Origin: an uncultured Chloroflexia bacterium
GTDB lineage: Bacteria; Chloroflexota; Limnocylindria; Limnocylindrales; CSP1-4
NCBI GenBank assembly: GCA_963748625.1
Contig: CAVVJT010000007.1
Location: 96,001 to 160,000, forward strand
Direction: 5' to 3'
Length of the DNA stretch: 64,000 nucleotides
Positions within the stretch are counted from its first letter, which is position 1. Every line of letters begins with the position of its first letter. The position numbers were made by a program, and so were the translations under genes. The notes beneath the pieces are model-generated. The model had not been told where the DNA came from and searched no databases. It saw nothing but the letters and a program-made list of their open reading frames with translations. Positions 764 through 17,436 of this stretch are shown one piece after another.

Positions 764-1834
764 TCAAGCGGTCGGTCGCCGGTTGTGATCTCCTGAGCCG
801 GCGCGAGTACGTCGTCCCGCGAGGCGCTGGCGAACACGGAAGATGTTCCTGATCGCTGATCGCCCAACGCGCATTATCCGGTACCGCGAGCGGTGAAAGT
901 GGAAGGTCGGCGTCTCCACGCCGCCGTACTTCGCCTTGTAGTCGCCTGCTCCCCCCAAGTCGTAGCGCTCGGCGCCCTGCTCCCGCCAGAATCTCATGGC
1001 CTCCCAATGCAGCACTTCGTTCGGGTGGAGTTCTGCCTCGGTGCGGCGGAAAGCGGCGCCCCAAAGGGCCACCGTCTTCGTGTGTCCGACCAGGATAGCC
1101 GTGGCTATGCAGTCGCCACGGGGCGAACGAATCCGCAACAGGAGGAGATGGCCCGACGGCTGGACGCAGCCGATGAGCTGGCGGACTCGTTCCACGCCAT
1201 ACGTCGGCACGAGGTTCTGGCGGGCAAACACCTCCGCGAGCTGCGCCCAGTACTCGTCTGCGAACTCGAGATCGGTGGACCGCTCCACAGTGAGCCCGTT
1301 TCGGCGAGCTCGTCTGAGATAGTTCCGTGTCGTCGGCCGCATCGCACGTGCGATCGCCTCTTCGTCAGGGCGAAGGTCGACGACGAACGTGTGGCCAACT
1401 TCAACGATGTAGCTGGATCCCGCCATCAGGTCCGCGGTGAGCTGACGGTCAGCGAGCTCGACGTGCAGGCAGCGCAGATGATGGAAGGCAAACAGAAGGA
1501 GGGCCTCCGCAGCGATCTGGCGGTCGAACCCGACCTCCAGCAGGAAGCCCATGCACTGCGTTCCCCACCCTCGCAGGGGACTGCCCAGGATCCGGATACC
1601 GTAGCGCCGGACGATCGCGCCGACGAAGAATCCAACGGGCCGTCCGTCCGCGCGCACGACGGCAGTGACCGGCTCCGCGCCTTGCGAGGCAGCCAGGAAG
1701 TCGAGCCACGCGGACCCATGGAAGACCTCCAGGTCTGGGTGACCAGCGATCATGTGATCCCAGGCGGCAGCGTCGTAGTCGAGGCGCTCAAACGTGACCT
1801 GTACCGGCTGACTCGACGTCACGATGCGACCCAA
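764..1834 (-). CDS. GNAT/FemAB-like (BioF2-type) N-acyltransferase
   Basis: FHGSAWL, 'RNYLRRARRNGL', 'HPNEVLHWEAMR', 'YDLGG..DYKAKYGG' are typical of the FemAB-like GNAT fold; start uncertain. Confidence 0.8.
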   Translation of the reverse strand: MGRIVTSSQPVQVTFERLDYDAAAWDHMIAGHPDLEVFHGSAWLDFLAASQGAEPVTAVVRADGRPVGFFVGAIVRRYGIRILGSPLRGWGTQCMGFLLEVGFDRQIAAEALLLFAFHHLRCLHVELADRQLTADLMAGSSYIVEVGHTFVVDLRPDEEAIARAMRPTTRNYLRRARRNGLTVERSTDLEFADEYWAQLAEVFARQNLVPTYGVERVRQLIGCVQPSGHLLLLRIRSPRGDCIATAILVGHTKTVALWGAAFRRTEAELHPNEVLHWEAMRFWREQGAERYDLGGAGDYKAKYGGVETPTFHFHRSRYRIMRVGRSAIRNIFRVRQRLAGRRTRAGSGDHNRRPTA

Positions 1835-2381
1835 CGTGGAAGAACACGGCGGGCCGCTTGCCTCACAGACGATGCTGTCCTCGCTGCGTCAGTGACGCTG
1901 CGCATTCCTACCCCCGGAGGATCCCGGCGCGGTAGCTGCCAGCTGCCAGCACTCCGGACCCTCGCTTGGTGCAGGGTTGACCGATCACGCCAGCGGCTGC
2001 TCCCTTGTGGCGTGCGGTTCACGACAGGTGCAAAGGCTGGAAGAGGTCGACGATTGCTGACCAAGTCAAGACGACGTCCCTTTAGAATGGATCGGACGCA
2101 GTGTCACCGTAGGTAAGGTGACCATGAACCGCGCCGATTCTGGCCGAGATCCAGAGCAGATGAGGTGAGTCTGCGCCGGCCCGGGACGCAAGTTTGAGTG
2201 GGCCGGGTCCGGCGGGCGGCGACAGTGTGTGGGGGGACGACCGTCAGAGGTGGCGTCGGGGGATCAGATACCCATTGGCGAACACGCAGGTGCGTGGCGC
2301 GGCGAGCCGCGGGGTGGCCCATTTCCGCTATCCCTGTGCCGTGCCTTCGATGCTCAGATGGCGTTCACCACCTTCTAGTTC

Positions 2382-3332
2382 CTAGCTGTAGCCGACGCGG
2401 ATCTTGCTCCGTAGCCAACGCCGCTCCAACGCTTGACGCTGGGCTGGAGATAGGACTGTGAGCCCGCGCTGTCGAACCAGGTGATCCAGGAGGGGGGTCA
2501 CGGGCACGAACCAACCGTTCTTGGACGCAAGGCGCTCCATGAGCTCGCGAAAGCGTGGGTCTATTCGCCCGTCGTTGCAGAAGCCGGAGGCAAAGTGGGT
2601 GTACATGATGCATGCCCCACCCTCCGCCTCGAGACGATCCTGCTCCGCCTCGCCGAGCTGGTGATTGAAGGCCCCCACGTCGGCCCCCTCAGAAGAGGCG
2701 AACCATGCTCGGACGTTGGGGCGGTCCGGGTCGTGATACGGCATGACGGGACAGGCGAGGAGGGTGTTCACGTCACCGTACGTGAAGTTGCGAACATACC
2801 GAACGCGCTCCCGACACAGATCGCCCCAGAACAGGGGGTCGCCTTCGATGTGACCGCGCGAGAAGCCACGACGGCGGAAACCCGTCAAGATGTTGTAGGC
2901 GAGCCGCGAGGTCCCGCTAACTCGGTCCTCGCCCCAGTAGATCGACTCGCGGCATCCGGCGTGATTGGCTAGGGTCTCGGGATCGTGACCGTAGATCTCC
3001 CGGAAACGATCCAGCGAGCGGGCCACAACCTCGCGAGGCGTTGTTGCCGGAGTGGCACCGTGCGAGCCGATCTCGAAGCCCGCCGTCTGCAACTCCAGGG
3101 TCCAGTCCCGATATGCCGGGTCGTCACAGGTTGCGCCCCCGATGAGGGGCGCGCCATCGCCAGCCATGGCCCAAACCGACTTGGTGGTTCGCAGGCCGAG
3201 GTCCCGCAGGAGCGAGTAGACCAGGGCCACATTCTCGACGGTAGCGTTGTCCGTGTCGTCAAAGACCGTAAAGGCGAACGCGCGGCCCTCCGGCCACTCG
3301 ACTAGCCGGCTGGTGTCCACCCGTCCCTCCAC
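2382..3332 (-). CDS. Polysaccharide deacetylase-like (NodB-fold) protein
   Basis: WPEGRAFAFTVFDDTD, FEIGSHG, ANH and YTHF motifs; GTG at 3332 with AAGGAG upstream. Confidence 0.7.
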   Translation of the reverse strand: MEGRVDTSRLVEWPEGRAFAFTVFDDTDNATVENVALVYSLLRDLGLRTTKSVWAMAGDGAPLIGGATCDDPAYRDWTLELQTAGFEIGSHGATPATTPREVVARSLDRFREIYGHDPETLANHAGCRESIYWGEDRVSGTSRLAYNILTGFRRRGFSRGHIEGDPLFWGDLCRERVRYVRNFTYGDVNTLLACPVMPYHDPDRPNVRAWFASSEGADVGAFNHQLGEAEQDRLEAEGGACIMYTHFASGFCNDGRIDPRFRELMERLASKNGWFVPVTPLLDHLVRQRGLTVLSPAQRQALERRWLRSKIRVGYS

Positions 3333-3657
3333 CCTGACTCCTTGGCGGGATCCACGCGGTAACTGCTTGCGCCACCCCCACCGAGACCGCGGATCTCGTG
3401 GTGGGCGATGAGCGCCAGCACGGACCGCGCAACGTCTCGAAGGTGCACCGGAACGGGCCAACTGTACCGCCTCGTGCGCTGGTTGCCGAGTGGGCGCGGT
3501 CGGTCTCATGTCCTCTTGCGGACAGCGGGTCGGAGTTCTGTGCGGCGGCTGCACGGAACCGCCGAAGAATGCCACGCATGGCCTTGTTGGAGGTTCAGCC
3601 AACCTCCGGCGTCGCAAGCTCTTGGGTGCGGACCATCTTGCGGAACAGTCGCTTCCC

Positions 3658-7487: not shown

Positions 7488-9062
7488 CTATGAGTCGAGA
7501 CGGTCCGGCGCCGCGGTCGCCGGACCGCCTGATGTCGGCCCAAGCTCACCTTGACGGTACTTGGGAAAGAAGCCCGATCTCGCGCGCGGATCGAGCGGAT
7601 CAAGGTGTGGATGGAGTGCCGCGACGAGACGGCCATACTCTCGCTCGTCGACCACCAGCCGGAGGGTGGTGAAGGTGTGGCGCAGTGGGGAGAAGCCGGT
7701 CTTGAAGTGCAACAGCGAGTCGGCAACGCCTCCCACACCCCCGCCGAGGTGGAGGACATCGTTCCCTCGCTCCCGGGCCCAGGCCCGCGCGAAGTGCATC
7801 ATCAGTTTCGTCGGCTGGATGTCGCGGAACTCGCCACTCGTCCCCGATAGGTGGTATTGGACGATGCCATCCGTCTCTACGAAGAGTCCTGTGGCTGCCA
7901 CCGCGTCGGCGTTCTCGACAACGCAGAGGTGGAGACGGTCGCCCAATGCAGCCCGCAGACTATCGAAGTACGCGTCCGCAAACTGGTAGAAGGGCGACGC
8001 CTTTCGGCGCTCCATGGTCTCCCTGTACTGGCGCTTGAACGTCTCGAAGTGCACCCAGTCTTCGTCCATGCGGGCGACGTAGCCGAACCGAGTGGCACGC
8101 AGGATGTCGCGCCGGTGATTCAGCCGCATCTGGGCCCAGTGCACGTCAGCCCCAAGTGTCAGGTCCACGCTTACCGTGTCACCGTGGGAAACGAGCACGC
8201 CGATCCCCTCGGGCGGCAGCATGTTGAGCAGCGGATGGAGCCGCAAGAACACTGCCACGAGCCCCGCGTCGCGCAGCACCTGGAGTCCCGCGACCAGCGC
8301 GACTCGCAGGAATGCAGGATCCTCGACCCCCTTCCCGATCGGACCTGGGTAGCCGTAGGGCGAGGTGGCGTCGAACCCATCACCCGGGATCTGTCGGATC
8401 AACAGGGGCAGCAGCATCGTCCTGTGACCGTCTGTGACGCGCAGTGCACAGGGCCGTGCGCCCTCCTGAGCCGCGCACAACGCGACGTATGCCGGCAGGT
8501 GGTAGAAGTCATGGCGCGCTTCCCGGAGCACTGCCTCCCACTCAGGCGCACCGACATCGAGCAACGTTCCAGAGAGTGGCGGCGAAGGCAGAGGCGTCGC
8601 AAGCTTGACCTCGCGATCCTGCTCGAGGTCAAGCAGCATCACAAGCTCGCCGCGGTCCTCGCCCGCGTACGCGTAGCCAAGCGCCTCGTACAGGTGGCGG
8701 GCACGAACGTTCTCGGGATGAACACGCAACCGGACCACCGTGGCGCCTCGTTGGGCGGCCTCGGCGTGCAAATATCCCATCATCGCGCGGCCCAGGCCCC
8801 GACCACCGGCACTTGATCGGACCGCGATGCCCAACGAGGGGACCGAGTAACCCTCGTCCCAGCCACGAAGCATGCCGTAGGCGACCGCCTGGCCGTCCTC
8901 GATGAGAACTGCGTAGGCATCTGGCCCTTTGTCGCCGGCGATTCGGCGGGCTTCGTCATGAGTAAAGGGATGCGGGCGGAAGTACGTCTCGTCGATGTCC
9001 GCAAAGACGTCGACCAGTAGCGCTTCATCCCCCGGCCCCACGACTCGATACTCGCTGCTCAA
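7488..9062 (-). CDS. Double GNAT protein (N-terminal classical GNAT + C-terminal FemAB-like GNAT)
   Basis: N-terminal LGIAVRSSAGGRGLGRAMM..LYEALGY. C-terminal DFYHLPAY, SPYGYPGP, HLGGGVGG..SLLHFKTGFS. TTG start overlaps the upstream TGA. Confidence 0.8.
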   Translation of the reverse strand: MSSEYRVVGPGDEALLVDVFADIDETYFRPHPFTHDEARRIAGDKGPDAYAVLIEDGQAVAYGMLRGWDEGYSVPSLGIAVRSSAGGRGLGRAMMGYLHAEAAQRGATVVRLRVHPENVRARHLYEALGYAYAGEDRGELVMLLDLEQDREVKLATPLPSPPLSGTLLDVGAPEWEAVLREARHDFYHLPAYVALCAAQEGARPCALRVTDGHRTMLLPLLIRQIPGDGFDATSPYGYPGPIGKGVEDPAFLRVALVAGLQVLRDAGLVAVFLRLHPLLNMLPPEGIGVLVSHGDTVSVDLTLGADVHWAQMRLNHRRDILRATRFGYVARMDEDWVHFETFKRQYRETMERRKASPFYQFADAYFDSLRAALGDRLHLCVVENADAVAATGLFVETDGIVQYHLSGTSGEFRDIQPTKLMMHFARAWARERGNDVLHLGGGVGGVADSLLHFKTGFSPLRHTFTTLRLVVDEREYGRLVAALHPHLDPLDPRARSGFFPKYRQGELGPTSGGPATAAPDRLDS

Positions 9063-9946
9063 CCTTCGCCTCCGGACGGGACGTGCGGGTAGGCATCTTC
9101 GGGGCCGGGTTGGCGCACGGCCCGGGTGAACAGGGAAGGGCCGGGCGTGAAAGCGGCGAGGCTGGGTTGGACGATGCGCTCCAGGCCGGTGAGCAGCCCG
9201 ATGGGCAGATGTGCCGTGATGAACGTCGGGCGGAGGAGGCCCACGCTCCTCGTCGGGCCGACGATGAACCCGACGTCCTCCAGCCAGGTGCGAACGTCCC
9301 TCGGTGCGTGGAGATACATTGTGGACCCGGACCACCCTCGCACCTTCGTCTCCTCGCCCGACAGCCCAGTCACGAGACGAGGTCGTCTGCCTTTGGCGCG
9401 GGAAGGCAACAGCGTGAGTTCCACGTAAGGCTGCGAACCGAGCCGGAATGGTGACGAGCGCAGGCGGCGGGTCAGATAGGCGAGGATCGCCTTCAGGTTG
9501 CGCTTGTTGGCCGTCTCCAGCACGAGGACGCCACCTGGGCGAAGGACTCTAGCGAACTCGGTGAGCGCGGGACGAGGATTCTCCAGGTGATGCAGCATCC
9601 GCACGCAGACGACGGTATCGAAGCTTCGATCGACGAAGGGAAGGTGGTTTGCCTCTCCCGATACCAGCGTGAACCGTGCCTGGTCGCCGATGTGCTCGCG
9701 CGCACCTCTCAGCATGGCCTCCGAAGGGTCGAGGAGCACGACATGATCGTAGCCCGCGTACTCGTCGGCAAGCCGGCCGAAGCCGGCTCCAACCTCGAGG
9801 ACACGATCCCCGCTGGGCGGCAGGAGCGCCCGGAGCGCCATCCGGTCGCACTCATCCTCGTACCGCCGTCCAGGCCAGAAGTGGTCGCGATAGTCGAGGT
9901 TCTCAAAGGCGACGAGTGTCGTCGCTAGCTCCGGAGCGGCCGCCAT
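9059..9946 (-). CDS. Class I SAM-dependent methyltransferase
   Basis: VLEVGAGFG motif I; LPFVDRSFDTVVC; ARVLRPGG. Confidence 0.9.
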   Translation of the reverse strand: MAAAPELATTLVAFENLDYRDHFWPGRRYEDECDRMALRALLPPSGDRVLEVGAGFGRLADEYAGYDHVVLLDPSEAMLRGAREHIGDQARFTLVSGEANHLPFVDRSFDTVVCVRMLHHLENPRPALTEFARVLRPGGVLVLETANKRNLKAILAYLTRRLRSSPFRLGSQPYVELTLLPSRAKGRRPRLVTGLSGEETKVRGWSGSTMYLHAPRDVRTWLEDVGFIVGPTRSVGLLRPTFITAHLPIGLLTGLERIVQPSLAAFTPGPSLFTRAVRQPGPEDAYPHVPSGGEG

Positions 9947-10174: not shown

Positions 10175-11305
10175 ATGACCTCGACGCCTGGGCACCCATA
10201 TCGAAACGTCCCGATAGCGCGGCCCGATATCGGCCCGCGCGAGCGCGAGCTCGTCGCCGAAGTGCTCGCAAGCGACGTCCTCGCGATGGGCCAATTCGGG
10301 CAGCGCTTCGAGGCAGGGATTGCCGCCGTTGCCGGTCGAGTTGAGGGCGTTGCCTGCTCAAGCGGCACGGCGGGCCTTCACCTCGGAGTCCGCGCCCTCG
10401 AGATCGGCGAGAACGACGAGGTCATCACCACCCCGTTCAGCTTCGTCGCCTCGGCCAACTGCCTGCTCTACGAACGCGCCGTACCGCGGTTCGTGGACAT
10501 CGAGGAGGAGAGCCTGGGCATGGACCCCGGCCAGGTGGAGGCGGCGGCCACCGGCCGCACTCGGGCCGTCCTGCCGGTGCACGTATTCGGCCGGCTGTGC
10601 CAGATCGACCCGATCATGTCCATCGCCCGGCGGCGGGGCTGGTCCGTCATCGAGGACGCATGCGAAGCTCTGGGCTCGTCCATCGGCGACCGGCCGGCCG
10701 GAAGCTTCGGCGACATCGCGGTGTTCGCCTTCTACCCGAACAAGCAGATCACGACCGGCGAGGGTGGCGTGGTAGTGACCGATGATCCGACCCTCGCCGA
10801 GACGATGCGCAGCCTGCGCAACCAGGGACGGGACGCGGACGGGACCTGGCTTCGCCACGTCCGCCTCGGTTACAACTACCGCCTGGATGAGATGTCGGCC
10901 GCAATCGGCGTGGCGCAACTTGAACGTCTCGAGGAGCTTCGTGCCGGACGCGCCCGAGTCGCGGCCACATACGAGCACGAGCTCGACGGCAACGACTGGG
11001 TCAGGCTACCGAAGGCGGGCGCCGACGAACGCGTGGACTGGTTCGTGTACGTCGTCCGGCTCGACGCGGAGATCGACCGCGATGTCCTGATCGGCCGGCT
11101 GGCCGATCGAGGCGTTGCATCGCGGCCGTACTTCTCGCCGCTCCACCTGCAGCCGTTCTACCGCAGGACCTTTGGGTTCAAACCGGGCGACTTCCCGATC
11201 ACGGAGCGGGTGGCCGCGTCCACCTTGGCCCTGCCGTTCTCCAGCCGGCTCGCGGACGACGACGTCCGATACGTTGCGGCGGCACTGTGCGAGTCAATAG
11301 GGTGA
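10175..11305 (+). CDS. DegT/DnrJ/EryC1/StrS sugar aminotransferase
   Basis: SSGTAGLHL, IEDACEALGS, FAFYPNKQITTGEGG (PLP lysine). Confidence 0.95.
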   Translation: MTSTPGHPYRNVPIARPDIGPRERELVAEVLASDVLAMGQFGQRFEAGIAAVAGRVEGVACSSGTAGLHLGVRALEIGENDEVITTPFSFVASANCLLYERAVPRFVDIEEESLGMDPGQVEAAATGRTRAVLPVHVFGRLCQIDPIMSIARRRGWSVIEDACEALGSSIGDRPAGSFGDIAVFAFYPNKQITTGEGGVVVTDDPTLAETMRSLRNQGRDADGTWLRHVRLGYNYRLDEMSAAIGVAQLERLEELRAGRARVAATYEHELDGNDWVRLPKAGADERVDWFVYVVRLDAEIDRDVLIGRLADRGVASRPYFSPLHLQPFYRRTFGFKPGDFPITERVAASTLALPFSSRLADDDVRYVAAALCESIG

Positions 11306-12534
11306 CACCCGCCGCACGGTCGCCAGCGATCGTTGTCTCCGGCCACACGATGGCCCTGGCCGTGGTGCGGGCTCTCGGTGAAGCCGGCGTGCCCGTCGTT
11401 GTGGCGCACTACGACGCCCGCGACGTCGCCCAGACATCACGTCATGCGATGGCCGCCATCCGCGTACCCAACCCAATGTTGGACGAGGCAGGGTTCATAG
11501 ACGCGCTCGCAGCCCGCGGTCGCGAGTTTGGCGGCTCCGTCCTCTTCCCCGCATCTGACGAGAGCACCGTCGCGGTCTCCCGCAACAAGTCCCTCCTCGA
11601 GAAGCACTTCACGGTTGCATGTCCCGCCTGGGCGGTCACCGAGCGCTTCATCGACAAGTCGCGGACATACGAGATCGCCGCAGCATGTGGCGTGCCGACG
11701 CCACGAACCGTGACCCCGACGTCCGAGGCACACCTGCGGAAAGAGGCAGCGAGGATCGGGTACCCCGTGCTACTGAAGCCCGCGGAGAGCCACCGCTTCT
11801 ACGAGCGGTTCAAGCGGAAGATGGTCCGTGCCGATACGGAGTCGGAACTGGTGCACGCCTACCGTTCGGCAGTCGAGGCGGGGCTCGCCGTGATGGTCCA
11901 GGAGATCATCCCTGGTGCCGACCACACCGTCGTCAACTACAACGCCTACTTCTGGCAAGGCCAGCCTCGTGTCGAGTTCACGGCACGTCAGCTGCGGAAG
12001 GCACCTCCTGCGCTTGGGTCGCCGCGTGTCGCGATCAGCGAGCGGATCCCCAAGGTCCTCGAGCCGGGCAGAGAGATTCTTGCCGCCCTCGGTTTCGAGG
12101 GCTTCGCGTGCACCGAGTTCAAGCAGGACAGCCGCGACGGCGTGTTCAAGCTGATGGAGGTCAATGGGCGGCACAACCTTTCCGGGTTGCTCGCGGTCCG
12201 CAGCGGGGTCAACTTCCCCCTGCTTCACTACCGGCACATGGCCGAAAGCATCGAGCCAAGCGCCGCCTCGTTCCGGGCCGGAGTCTACTGGACGGACATG
12301 TTCCGGGACGCCGGGTACAGCCTCGCCTACCTCCGATCGGAGCGCTATCGGCCGTCAGACTACCTCGCCCCCTACGCGCGGCGGCACTGCGACGCGATCT
12401 GGGACCGACAAGACATGGGCCCATTCTGGGCGCGTCTCGGCTACCTGGCCCGGAACTCAGGTGCAACGGCACGAGCGGCGGTCGGTGCGCCGGCGATGGC
12501 GAAGCATCCCGACGAGAAGAGGGAGAGGACATGA
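11302..12534 (+). CDS. ATP-grasp carboxylate-amine ligase (D-aspartate-ligase-like)
   Basis: DKSRTY, GVPTPRT, YPVLLKP, MVQEIIPG, EFKQDSRDGVFKLMEVNGR; GTGA overlap with the DegT gene. Confidence 0.85.
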   Translation: MTPAARSPAIVVSGHTMALAVVRALGEAGVPVVVAHYDARDVAQTSRHAMAAIRVPNPMLDEAGFIDALAARGREFGGSVLFPASDESTVAVSRNKSLLEKHFTVACPAWAVTERFIDKSRTYEIAAACGVPTPRTVTPTSEAHLRKEAARIGYPVLLKPAESHRFYERFKRKMVRADTESELVHAYRSAVEAGLAVMVQEIIPGADHTVVNYNAYFWQGQPRVEFTARQLRKAPPALGSPRVAISERIPKVLEPGREILAALGFEGFACTEFKQDSRDGVFKLMEVNGRHNLSGLLAVRSGVNFPLLHYRHMAESIEPSAASFRAGVYWTDMFRDAGYSLAYLRSERYRPSDYLAPYARRHCDAIWDRQDMGPFWARLGYLARNSGATARAAVGAPAMAKHPDEKRERT

Positions 12535-14150: not shown

Positions 14151-16133
14151 TCAGGGCTGGTCGATGGCGTATCGGAGGCCGACGACGATGTCCCGGTCAA
14201 ACGTTCCGGAGAACGTCGCCGTCGCCCCGGCCACAATGAGTTCCGGGCTGGCTGCAGTGATCCGGTAGCCGTCGGGCACCAGGATGCTGAGCGTGAGCGG
14301 CCCGGCCAGCAGGCCAGGCTGCTTCTGGATCGTCAGGCGGTACGTGCCGCCTTCGTCGTCGGCCTCGGCCGCGTATGGGCTCGTCCACGCGTACGTGAGG
14401 CTGGTGCTGCCGGGAGGCACCTGGAGGTACGCCCCGATCACCATCCTGCCGGCCTCGTTCTCGACCACCGCGGGATCGCTCAAGGGCATGGCTCCGCCGC
14501 CGCTAACAGCGCCGACTCGGCTGCGCTCGGGGACCACGACCCTGGAATACATCCCGAGAATCCGTCCACCGACGTTCTCCAAGGCCATGATGGCGTCTCC
14601 GGCCGCCGAGTCCACGGCGTTGTCCCAGGTCACCTGCAGCGAGTTGCTCGCATTGCCCACGGCGTCGAGGCGGATATCGAGATCGAGTGACCGAGTGGTG
14701 ACGATGTTGAGCTTCGACACGGGCGCCACGTTCGAATCAACGAGGTACACGAAGTCGCCGGCATCGTCTCGGACCGCGCCGGAGAAGCCGCCGCCGGCGA
14801 CCGCTGCCTGGTCTGCGGCGTCGACGAACCACGCCTGGAGGAGCCGATCCCGCCCGAGTGTCTCAACGGTGCCGACCAGATCGCCCCAACTCTGTGATGG
14901 CAGCGCCAGCATTGCCGCGACGAGACTATTGGCGAAAGCGAACAGAAATGCCTTCGCGTTCTCGCCCGGCGTGCGGGGAACCCGCGTGCGCTCAAGAACG
15001 GTCATCGTCGTCTCGCCTGGGGACACGGTCGTATCGAATCCGGGTACCGCGATCGGACCCGTGGCCTTCAGCAACTCGTCGATGGTGAAGGTGGTGATAG
15101 CGAGGACGCCGTCGAGGTCGCCATCGCCACTCTCGTTCGTGTAGAGGCGCAGGGCGTCCCTTGCGCTGGTGGGAAAGTCGGGTGACCAATTCGCGTCCGC
15201 GAACTGCCAGGGCTGCTTCGGTCCAAGCAGATAGTCTGCAAGCTCGCGGGGCGGGTCGATCCATGGGTAGTCAAACGGGAAGTCGAGGGGCCCGGTGTCC
15301 CGGAACCGGAGTTCCACGATCCGACCGCGGTCGAAGCCGACGATGGCGTACGTACCGAGGAATCCCCCAGTCGGACGCAACTCGGCAGGGTCCTGTGTGA
15401 GGACCAGGTAGCGCCGTGGTCCATCCCAGCCCAGGATGGACGGCAGCCGGGCGCTGACCTCGACGTAGGTGTCGAGGAGCGGGCCGTACGTGTCGATCCG
15501 CGCCGTCATCGCATCGCGGACGCTCTCCACCTGGCCCACCAGGCCGTCCGGCACCGCGGCAAGGTGCTGCCGGGCGCTCGCGACGGAGGCAGCAGCCGAG
15601 CTGACGCTGTCGCGGGTCGTGGCCATCAGCTCCACGAGCTGCGAGAGCGCGGAGGCGCGCGCCGGATCCGTGGCCTGCACGTCACGGATGTCGACGAACC
15701 GGCGCCCGACGACCAGCCCCTCGCCGACGGCATCAAGCAGGTCGCCGGCCGCAGCCACGACATCGTCCGCGCCACGCACGTTGGCGGCGGTGGGCGGGAG
15801 CGCGCGGGCGACCGCAACGAGTGGGTCGGTCGCAAGGAGGCTCTCGAGGCGGTCGAAGCGCCCGCGGGCCGCGGCCAGGTCGGCGTCAAGTGCGTCCATC
15901 GTGGCCCCGTCGATCCCCAGGCCGGCCTCCTTCACCCGGTCGACCATCGTCTCCAGGTCGGTCCGGAGCGCGCGCGCCTCGTCGAGCGCCGGCAGGTATC
16001 GGAGCGTGGCAAGGCCCGCGCCTAGGGCGAACGCGAGCACGAGGACAAGAGCGATGCCGCCCAGCACCACCCGCCGCCGGGGCCGGCCCCATCGCCGCGG
16101 AGCAGCCTCCGGTGCCACGCCACCCACGCTCAC
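14151..16133 (-). CDS. DUF4012 domain membrane-anchored protein
   Basis: N-terminal TM, helical stalk, YLVLTQDPAELRPTGGFLG, DANWSPDFPTSA, DGVLAI, YRLTIQKQPG; GTGA overlap with the sortase stop. Confidence 0.85.
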   Translation of the reverse strand: MSVGGVAPEAAPRRWGRPRRRVVLGGIALVLVLAFALGAGLATLRYLPALDEARALRTDLETMVDRVKEAGLGIDGATMDALDADLAAARGRFDRLESLLATDPLVAVARALPPTAANVRGADDVVAAAGDLLDAVGEGLVVGRRFVDIRDVQATDPARASALSQLVELMATTRDSVSSAAASVASARQHLAAVPDGLVGQVESVRDAMTARIDTYGPLLDTYVEVSARLPSILGWDGPRRYLVLTQDPAELRPTGGFLGTYAIVGFDRGRIVELRFRDTGPLDFPFDYPWIDPPRELADYLLGPKQPWQFADANWSPDFPTSARDALRLYTNESGDGDLDGVLAITTFTIDELLKATGPIAVPGFDTTVSPGETTMTVLERTRVPRTPGENAKAFLFAFANSLVAAMLALPSQSWGDLVGTVETLGRDRLLQAWFVDAADQAAVAGGGFSGAVRDDAGDFVYLVDSNVAPVSKLNIVTTRSLDLDIRLDAVGNASNSLQVTWDNAVDSAAGDAIMALENVGGRILGMYSRVVVPERSRVGAVSGGGAMPLSDPAVVENEAGRMVIGAYLQVPPGSTSLTYAWTSPYAAEADDEGGTYRLTIQKQPGLLAGPLTLSILVPDGYRITAASPELIVAGATATFSGTFDRDIVVGLRYAIDQP

Positions 16134-16855
16134 GGAGCCGGGTGCGCGATGACGATGAACCGGGGCGAGGTCGGGTGGTACGAGGTCGAGGTCTGCAGCG
16201 TCAACTGCTCGGTCTTCGTCGGCCGCACGTACTTCATGGCATCCCACGGGACCTTCGGGATGACCTCGTCCACGACGTACCGGCGCGCCGTCCCGTCGGC
16301 CAGGTCCAGCTCGATGACGTCGCCCACCTGCGCCTTCCACAGGTTGATGAACATCCCCTTGCGAGCATGGCCGTAGATATAGACGTTGGAACCGGCACCG
16401 GGCCACGCGGAGCCCGGGTAGTGGGCCGCCTTGTCGATCGGGGCGTCGATGCCATCACCCTCGACGATCCGGAGGTCGATGTCGAGCCGCTCGATCCGGA
16501 TCCGCTTCGCCTTGATGCCGTCGCCGGCAGCAGCGGTCGTGCTCGCGGACGGCTCCGCAGCGCCCGTGGCGTTGATCGAGCCCGTTGGGGTGAAGCTGGG
16601 CGCGGGGAGCTCGCTCGCGACCACGGGCACGAGGGACAGGTCCGCGTAGGCGGAGGTCGCCGCGGCGTCGGCGGTCGTCGATCCGGGCGTCGACGCCGTT
16701 CCGTCGGGCCCTCCGAGTCCGCCGAACGTGATCGCGAGACCGGCGATGATCGCAACGGCCGAGACAGCGAGGGTCGCGACGAGGACTGCCCTCCGATGCC
16801 GACCGCCGCTCGAGGAGGGCGGCGGCGAAGAGGTCGCGACGGGGCGCCCGGCCAT
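16130..16855 (-). CDS. Sortase-family protein with Ser in place of the catalytic Cys (H163-S223-R232)
   Basis: TM anchor; RIERLDIDLRIVEG, AAHYPGSAWPG..NVYIYGHAR, GDVIEL, LTLQTSTS...PRFIVIA (TLxTC position is TCG, Ser). Confidence 0.9.
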   Translation of the reverse strand: MAGRPVATSSPPPSSSGGRHRRAVLVATLAVSAVAIIAGLAITFGGLGGPDGTASTPGSTTADAAATSAYADLSLVPVVASELPAPSFTPTGSINATGAAEPSASTTAAAGDGIKAKRIRIERLDIDLRIVEGDGIDAPIDKAAHYPGSAWPGAGSNVYIYGHARKGMFINLWKAQVGDVIELDLADGTARRYVVDEVIPKVPWDAMKYVRPTKTEQLTLQTSTSYHPTSPRFIVIAHPAP

Positions 16856-16902
16856 GTCAGAGACTGAGGCAGTAGGTGGCCGGCCAGCCTGTCAGCCCGA
16901 CG

Positions 16903-17436
16903 TCAGGCCCAGCGCCGGAGTGCGATCGCGCCGCCGAAGAGGCCCGCAAGCACCAGGAGCAGGCCGACACCGACGGGCACACCACCTGCAGGCGCATCCC
17001 CCGGCAGGGTGGACGTCCGCGGCAGGCCACCGCACACCTGGGTCACGACCCCCGACGCGCTCACGTCGCCGGTTGTGCTCCCTTCGGCCGCGGTCACGGT
17101 CGCGCGGATCTGCCGCTGACCGCTGACAGCCCCCAGCGTCACGGTCGTCGTGGCGATGCCCTGCGCGTTCGTGACTGTCGGCGTCTTGTTGATTGTGTCC
17201 GACGCGGACTGCGTCGTCACGAAGGTCCAGGCCACCGACTGGTCGGCGACCGGGGCCCCGTTCGCGTCCAGGATGGTGGCGGTCATCGTGAACGGCTGGC
17301 CGCACGTGATCGTGCCCTGTGCGGCGACGCCGACGATCGCCTCGACCTGGCCCGTGTACCCGAAGGCGGTCGCAGTCGCCGTCAGCAGGATGATCACGGC
17401 CGCCAGACCGGCGACCCACCGAGTCCGGGCCCTCAT
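16903..17436 (-). CDS. Ig-like (Big_1/invasin-type) surface protein with LPRTS sortase sorting signal
   Basis: Signal peptide; ATILDANGAPVADQSVAW..TNAQGIATTTVT (Big_1-like); C-terminal LPRTS (17011-17025), then a hydrophobic helix and RRWA tail. Confidence 0.85.
   Translation of the reverse strand: MRARTRWVAGLAAVIILLTATATAFGYTGQVEAIVGVAAQGTITCGQPFTMTATILDANGAPVADQSVAWTFVTTQSASDTINKTPTVTNAQGIATTTVTLGAVSGQRQIRATVTAAEGSTTGDVSASGVVTQVCGGLPRTSTLPGDAPAGGVPVGVGLLLVLAGLFGGAIALRRWA

Follow-up and report, generated by a model that had tools for sequence, protein, structure and literature searches.

Here, we describe a three-gene cassette in a 64,000-nucleotide stretch of contig CAVVJT010000007.1 (assembly GCA_963748625.1; hereafter the window), whose middle gene encodes a sortase-fold protein with a serine, Ser223, at the position of the catalytic cysteine. 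The cassette is self-contained and occurs in Limnocylindria-type Chloroflexota. Its first gene encodes a secreted Big_1 protein, the second a sortase-fold enzyme anchored in the membrane, and the third a membrane protein of the DUF4012 family. The conserved replacement of cysteine by serine suggests, without proving, a serine-based sortase in this group of freshwater and soil bacteria. We regard it as an even question whether the protein is an active, dedicated sortase with a serine nucleophile that transfers the neighbouring Big_1 protein to an acceptor in the cell envelope. The broader proposal, that Limnocylindria-type Chloroflexota use true serine sortases, i.e., serine transpeptidases on the sortase fold that form an ester acyl-enzyme, is made more tentatively, at a little short of an even chance.

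A sortase fold with serine in place of cysteine

The 241-amino-acid protein matches the Pfam family Sortase (PF04203) over profile positions 1-124 of 125 (E = 2e-18, 66.8 bits, cut-off 26.6). An AlphaFold2 (AF2) model computed from an 86-row alignment reaches a predicted local distance difference test (pLDDT) above 90 over residues 111-241, with a poorly ordered linker. When the PDB was searched with Foldseek, all top matches were sortases of known structure, from classes C, A, D, and E (E about 1e-9 to 1e-8, probability 1.00, target TM-scores 0.5-0.74). The family profile also retrieves 63 solved sortase chains by sequence (best E = 5e-19). Ser223 is the last residue of modelled strand 217-223, His163 comes just after strand 157-162, and strand 232-239 begins with Arg232; in the profile alignment to SrtA of Corynebacterium diphtheriae (6bwe/5k9a), LTLQT[S/C] falls on TLiTC and PRF on hRL. 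His163 is the sole invariant column of the 86-row family alignment and is aligned with the catalytic histidine of solved sortases. Arg232, which is aligned with the arginine of 6bwe, is kept in 76 of the 86 rows and is lysine or glutamate in some sub-clades.

The catalytic cysteine of PF04203 and of MEROPS family C60 is absent; Ser223 stands in its place, and the entire 241-residue translation is free of cysteine. The protein thus fails one defining sortase feature and fits all others that can be assessed by sequence or model, namely the PF04203 threshold, the beta-barrel fold, the catalytic histidine, the arginine on the following strand, and a neighbour with a sorting signal. None of the NCBIfam sortase class models (classes A-F and GN) was reached. 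Scores were 29.6 for SrtD (cut-off 140), 28.8 for class D (165), 22.9 for class E (160), 22.3 for class F (166), 20.0 for class C (160), and 19.2 for class GN (TIGR03784; 158, E = 7.6e-4), and TIGR01076 scored 35.6 against a cut-off of 39.35.

Conservation, selection, and repeated exchange of the serine

An initial annotation of this DNA had proposed a sortase with a serine nucleophile from the letters of the window, and its reading of the locus, i.e., the gene layout, the GTGA overlap, TLQTS, the lack of cysteine, His163, Arg232, the codon positions, and the LPRTS tail, was confirmed in the DNA throughout. The serine is not a private change of this genome. A search with the catalytic domain returned 542 matches, and among the 120 of these that were listed, 115 have LT[LV]QTS, one has LTLQTC, four have no such motif, and 107 contain no cysteine at all. 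The names carried by homologs put the source organism within Chloroflexota, close to Candidatus Limnocylindrales. A dedicated search for related loci gave one locus from genomes and five from metagenomes; the comparative set was instead supplied by a genome search, which gave 29 loci in further genomes of this class (L019 is from an unpublished genome), and with one locus from the dedicated search it comprises 30. Serine is encoded at 28 of these 30 loci and cysteine at two, in an otherwise identical context, EQLTLQT[S/C]T, and every full-length copy retains the histidine and the arginine. More broadly, an exhaustive search among representatives of 50%-identity clusters gave 1105 proteins (E <= 0.001); the best 150 of these 1105 were aligned, and the 125 that cover the nucleophile column have cysteine (75), serine (47), alanine (1), arginine (1), or glutamine (1). 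The distant serine rows keep the histidine in nearly all cases and the arginine in most.

It had also been argued that TCG differs from TGC and TGT at two positions, which would make a single error or mutation improbable. This is true for TCG; as an argument, however, it is weak, because relatives use TCC as well as TCG and TCA, the cysteine codon is TGC, and TGC to TCC is a single step that synonymous drift can follow. Judging from the sequences compared, the real argument is the conservation of the serine. The ratio of nonsynonymous to synonymous substitution rates (dN/dS, NG86 method) of the catalytic domain, a check that the initial annotation had called for, lies in broad terms at about 0.15-0.3; it ranges from 0.12 to 0.22 in the 12 closest pairs and from 0.15 to 0.47 in comparisons with the window protein, which indicates that the domain is under purifying selection. 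The same serine, gene order, and tail motif recur in independent genomes, so the feature is more than chance.

A tree of 86 full-domain rows (135 columns, nucleophile column excluded, quick search) needs at least five changes between serine and cysteine, of which well-supported branches force three. One clade of 26 rows is serine-only, and the window protein belongs to a supported clade in which 19 sequences have cysteine and six have serine; a single serine clade is rejected (approximately unbiased (AU) test, p = 0.0025; delta log-likelihood (lnL) 95.7). As far as such a tree can tell, serine and cysteine have been exchanged repeatedly in this family. All 17 related genes read from other Chloroflexota classes have cysteine (L047 lies in G443, an unpublished genome).

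A sister family within the class carries a serine-type sortase (TLQTSTGP...DPRF) flanked on one side by an M24 peptidase gene and on the other by a gene for a DPBB_1 (RlpA-like) protein. This neighbourhood was present in six of the eight loci scanned (L018, L019, L022, L023, L025, and L031), and neither a DUF4012 nor a Big_1 gene lies closer than 1.5 kb.

The neighbouring Big_1 protein and its signal

The candidate substrate is recognized by Pfam as a Big_1 protein (PF02369, E = 5.4e-9, 36.5 bits, cut-off 34.9), and its C-terminus ends ...VCGGLPRTSTLPGDAPAGGVPVGVGLLLVLAGLFGGAIALRRWA, i.e., GGLPRTSTLP followed by a spacer, a hydrophobic helix, and RRWA. LPxT is present in 91 of the 95 homologs found, and the residue after the threonine is serine in 75, aspartate in 15, and threonine in one. 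The next three positions are threonine, leucine, and proline in 88, 84, and 69 of the 95, respectively, and a hydrophobic stretch and basic tail accompany the motif in 86. Glycine follows the threonine in none of the 95 homologs. As these positions recur without glycine throughout the homologs, the signal can be described as an eight-residue LPxT(S/D)TLP. The protein matches no NCBIfam family, including the LPXTG anchor models, at E <= 0.01.

The initial annotation inferred a serine-nucleophile sortase that processes LPxTS proteins. A link between the serine after the threonine and the serine nucleophile was not borne out by comparison. The two triads with a cysteine-type enzyme (L012 and L013) also have LPNTS tails, and in other Chloroflexota classes some neighbours of cysteine-type relatives carry LPATS, LPFTS, LPFTG, or LPATG tails. 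The serine after the threonine is therefore better seen as a trait of the sortase subfamily than as a mirror of the serine nucleophile.

A genome-wide scan for LPxT tails in the genome that holds the window (G000) used a permissive pattern and gave 111 rows, nearly all noise, of which only the window protein was convincing as a substrate by inspection. An LPTTG row at C4:418417-418848 was discarded because it resembles a polytopic membrane protein. Pilus-like polymerisation of the Big_1 protein was likewise rejected, as just 31 of 87 aligned rows retain its sole lysine (Lys84) and lysine is missing altogether from 10 of the 86 aligned homologs.

Two further features of such substrates were observed. 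Cys45 of the Big_1 protein is invariant (87/87 aligned rows), and 74 of these rows also have Cys135, which lies three positions ahead of LPRTS; a disulfide between them may pin the signal to the Ig domain. In another locus (L033:2198-3367, minus strand), an Ice_binding-like protein (PF11999, E = 4e-48) beside a serine-type sortase ends with LPSTSTLE, a helix, and an arginine-rich tail, and by this tail it is a predicted second kind of cargo with the same signal.

DUF4012 and the composition of the triad

Genes for an LPxTS-tailed Big_1 protein, the sortase, and DUF4012 (PF13196 in the window: E = 6.4e-31, 108.2 bits, cut-off 28) follow one another in this order in 13 of 13 close loci (L003, L005-L016), in agreement with the co-occurrence expected from the initial annotation. 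The triad is accessory, with strong matches (E <= 1e-46) in 13 of the 201 genomes of the class that were searched, G000 included. Since the cysteine-type triads share both this architecture and the LPNTS signal, serine and cysteine enzymes appear interchangeable in one and the same job. The triads of L003 and L015 look frameshifted, with the DUF4012 frame split in both and the sortase frame also split in L015; this could be assembly error or decay.

The pairing with DUF4012 extends beyond the class. Six of the 17 cysteine-type relatives in other Chloroflexota classes adjoin a DUF4012 gene, which implies that the pairing is older than the change from cysteine to serine. We found 595 DUF4012 homologs. 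The AF2 model of the window protein (mean pLDDT 77.7) has an N-terminal membrane helix, a helical region (21-233), and then alpha/beta and beta-sandwich domains. Its Foldseek matches, to M1 aminopeptidase N-domains, Ost1/ribophorin, and ITIH1, are partial and too weak (query TM about 0.2) for a function to be assigned from the fold. A predicted complex of the sortase and DUF4012 scored 0.01 against a mark of 0.32, which is evidence neither way.

The wider context was read for five triads. Those of G000 and G038 lie among glycan genes, and that of G179 has NeuB and a nucleotidyltransferase nearby; the triads of G164 and G135 have unrelated neighbours and no glycan genes. This variation argues for a self-contained cassette and does not favour a covalent link to the glycan of the locus, which the initial annotation had considered; as a fixed feature of the system, such a link is not supported.

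Layout of the locus in the window

The three genes are co-oriented on the minus strand (Table 1). The stop codon of the sortase gene, TGA (16130-16132), lies inside GTGA, of which GTG (16131-16133) starts the DUF4012 frame, and the DNA of the nucleophile motif reads ACG CTG CAG ACC TCG. The DUF4012 gene ends 17 bases from a gene for a Bac_transf priming transferase. Other flanking genes encode two DegT aminotransferases, a methyltransferase, a hexapeptide acetyltransferase, a GFO/IDH/MocA oxidoreductase, a UDP-glucose/GDP-mannose dehydrogenase family protein, and a GT4, all of them glycan enzymes. Among the sequencing datasets listed as sharing words with the locus, none was of RNA, and each of the DNA datasets contains a small share of the words sampled.

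Table 1 Features of the three-gene cassette (positions in the 64,000-nucleotide window)
Feature	Position	Strand	Description
Candidate substrate, 177 amino acids	16903..17436	-	Open reading frame (ORF); signal-peptide-like N-terminus (sequence reading only), one Big_1 Ig-like domain, C-terminal sorting signal
Sorting motif LPRTSTLP, substrate residues 138-145	17002..17025	-	Followed by spacer, hydrophobic helix, and RRWA down to 16906
Sortase-fold protein, 241 amino acids	16130..16855	-	N-terminal helix 19-43, low-complexity linker, catalytic beta-barrel about 111-241
His163 codon, CAT in YIYGH	16367..16369	-	Read from DNA
Ser223 codon, TCG in TLQTS	16187..16189	-	Position of the sortase catalytic cysteine (TLxTC)
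Arg232 codon, CGG in SPRF	16160..16162	-	Read from DNA
DUF4012 protein, 660 amino acids counted from the overlap GTG	14151..16133	-	PF13196 match

Elsewhere in the glycan locus, a 615-amino-acid protein (7491-9335, minus strand) has GNAT domains, with matches to the FemAB family (PF02388, E = 1.9e-8) and to Acetyltransf_6 (E = 6.9e-8). FemAB-type enzymes attach amino acids to envelope precursors, and as pure speculation this protein could make an amine acceptor. Three ORFs of more than 400 amino acids in or beside the glycan locus (11287-12531, plus strand; 2385-3617, minus strand; 893-2113, plus strand) match no Pfam family at E <= 1e-5.

Further sortase-fold genes

When all ORFs of G000 were scanned with the family profile, four sortase-fold genes were found, three serine-type, including that of the window, and one cysteine-type. 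The two serine-type paralogs read LWLQTSEGP (C7:1188331-1189179; L002/L058) and VWLQTSTGP (C4:793922-794857; L089), both with lysine where the arginine is expected. The LQTSEGP paralog was matched in all 35 sampled genomes of the same family, with serine in each of the 31 ORFs read, at 30 loci. The cysteine-type gene (C4:399216-400049; L088/L091) is divergent, with YLLGH, MTLQTCVGK, YRLMV, and a linker rich in proline and lysine. Of the 35 further genomes sampled from the same family, 17 contain an ortholog of it (E <= 1e-31).

Proposed mechanism and alternative explanations

We infer that Ser223 acts as the nucleophile, that the neighbouring protein is what is cleaved, and that the outcome is transfer rather than hydrolysis. 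In this scheme, the Big_1 protein would, after export, be retained in the membrane through the hydrophobic helix and basic tail at its C-terminus, where the sortase-fold enzyme would recognize the extended signal LPxT(S/D)TLP. Ser223, at a position that is cysteine in every characterised sortase, would attack the carbonyl of Thr141 with the help of His163 and Arg232, forming an acyl (ester) enzyme and releasing the membrane tail. A nucleophile of the envelope would then resolve the acyl intermediate and so fix the Big_1 protein to the cell surface. Candidate acceptors are a peptidoglycan precursor, a glycan amine, or something that DUF4012 presents. The classical acceptor should be available in G000, as peptidoglycan machinery is encoded there, including six matches to penicillin-binding protein (PBP) transpeptidases.

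Several observations weigh against a catalytic serine. The engineered variant C184S of Staphylococcus aureus SrtA is reported to have dramatically decreased activity (PMC4827206), and another study uses C184S SrtA as an inert, cys-less background (PMC5578623). No co-varying residue, such as an acid for a Ser-His-Asp triad, was found that would part serine from cysteine forms beyond clade effects, and the columns that do discriminate between the two forms follow the large serine-only clade. In the tree, with its 135 columns and quick search, 40 of the 83 inner branches are unresolved. G000 is a metagenome-type assembly with an estimated contamination of 7.74%. Lastly, the divergent cysteine-type gene exists in G000, although its Pfam Sortase score of 23.1 bits is below the cut-off of 26.6, and an ortholog of it is present in two of the five other triad genomes scanned with the profile (G179 and G188).

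The crippling effect of the engineered exchange and the lack of a compensating active-site change would suit a conserved pseudo-enzyme, which binds the signal with the help of the retained histidine and arginine, does not cleave it, and positions the LPxTSTLP protein in the role of receptor, chaperone, or scaffold, with DUF4012 perhaps as its partner in this. In that case the substrate's own helix would keep it anchored, and it does carry a complete membrane anchor of its own; purifying selection, moreover, suits any useful function, be it catalysis or another. We consider this explanation improbable, though it has to be taken seriously. Dead enzymes usually tolerate many residues at the lost catalytic position; here, however, the replacement is nearly always serine, with 47 serines against three other residues in the 50 non-cysteine rows among the best 150 of the 1105 representatives. 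In addition, His163 is the single invariant column, cysteine-type and serine-type triads are otherwise alike, and three triad genomes have no detected cysteine-type enzyme and nevertheless a strictly conserved eight-residue signal. That non-cysteine positions are nearly always serine, that the histidine is invariant, and that cysteine and serine triads are interchangeable tips the balance toward catalysis.

An active serine enzyme need not be a transferase, and the structural and conservation evidence would be the same for a hydrolase or sheddase that cuts at LPxT and frees the Big_1 protein into the matrix or the medium. Ester acyl-enzymes are less activated toward aminolysis than thioesters, and water could compete; two of the five triad contexts, moreover, have no glycan or wall-synthesis genes. 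As the usual acceptor is available in G000, and as the sortase-fold enzymes known so far are transpeptidases according to the abstracts consulted, release by hydrolysis seems rather unlikely to us. Even less probable is processing of the neighbouring protein by the divergent cysteine-type sortase (YLLGH, MTLQTC, YRLMV), with the serine-type gene in an accessory or regulatory role. The initial annotation had named a cysteine sortase elsewhere in the genome as a potential objection. Such a gene is indeed present in G000 and, as orthologs, in about half of the same-family genomes sampled (17/35); it is, however, unlinked to the triad and below the Pfam sortase threshold, and the only convincing LPxT substrate in the permissive scan of G000 is the window protein. 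In three of the five other triad genomes searched (G038, G005, and G053; 95, 95, and 94% complete), the profile scan finds no cysteine-type sortase and only two sortase-fold genes each, both serine-type. All three still keep the LPxT(S/D)T signal, so a cysteine enzyme is not required for reading it. An artefact of sequencing or assembly, or a recent mutation that inactivated the enzyme in this one genome, to which the contaminated metagenome-type assembly might have lent some credit, is refuted by the conservation data and has practically no chance of being correct: the serine recurs in 115 of the 120 listed homologs, which come from many sources, and at 28 of the 30 loci, is written with three different codons, and lies in a domain with dN/dS well below 1.

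Significance and relation to known systems

All abstracts and reviews consulted describe sortases as cysteine transpeptidases, and both inhibitor design and protein-ligation technology target or depend on the sortase thiol. The full-text literature that was searched, which leaves most subscription journals outside its scope, describes no natural serine sortase and no LPxTS(T) signal. If dedicated serine sortases do exist as proposed here, "sortase = cysteine transpeptidase" would not be a rule, and the fold would support a second chemistry. There would then be a natural thiol-free, oxidation-insensitive sortase with an orthogonal eight-residue tag, LPxTSTLP; cysteine and serine would have been swapped several times without a change of partners or signal, and some genomes would have only serine-type genes, as far as these are detectable. 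At the least, a widespread "dead" sortase would have a selected role. The question can be tested with one small soluble domain (about residues 105-241) and one peptide (GGLPRTSTLPGD). DUF4012, an uncharacterised envelope family of polysaccharide loci, also gains a conserved partner across several Chloroflexota classes.

Sortases of PF04203 and MEROPS C60 share with the window protein the beta-barrel, the positions of the histidine and the arginine, the T-L-x-T before the nucleophile, and an N-terminal membrane helix, and sortase systems likewise have neighbouring substrates with LPxT, a hydrophobic helix, and a basic tail; the nearest structures are 6bwe and 5k9a. The window protein differs in its serine at the nucleophile position, its lack of any cysteine and of an NCBIfam class, and an eight-residue signal without glycine after the threonine. 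The class GN ("marine") sortases (TIGR03784) are also comparable in that a sortase stands beside an apparent single cognate substrate with a variant signal. They form dedicated systems of one sortase and one target and are cysteine enzymes, and the window protein, at 19.2 bits, is far from their cut-off of 158.

Exchange of the nucleophile has parallels on other folds. In the chymotrypsin-like PA clan, serine and cysteine nucleophiles interchange on one fold. Papain-like families with serine in place of cysteine are also reported (PMC10318531). These swaps resemble the present case in that the nucleophile changed while the fold and the histidine were kept; they differ in fold and chemistry. 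Exosortase/PEP-CTERM systems are alike by context only, with sorting genes in a polysaccharide locus, since the window enzyme has the sortase fold and not the exosortase fold. A DUF4012 gene beside a priming sugar transferase, as in the window, is known from exopolysaccharide loci of Bifidobacterium longum (PMC5412050, Table 1; PMC6744442); these loci differ in that no sortase appears in the part of that table that was examined. The closest cysteine relatives are the pairs of a cysteine-type sortase and DUF4012 in other Chloroflexota classes, which read TLQTC or LLTC and share the HAR/HAQ histidine motif. They keep the cysteine and have another gene order and other substrates; a weak resemblance to the Big_1 substrate (E = 4e-6) is seen in a single neighbour, that in L056.

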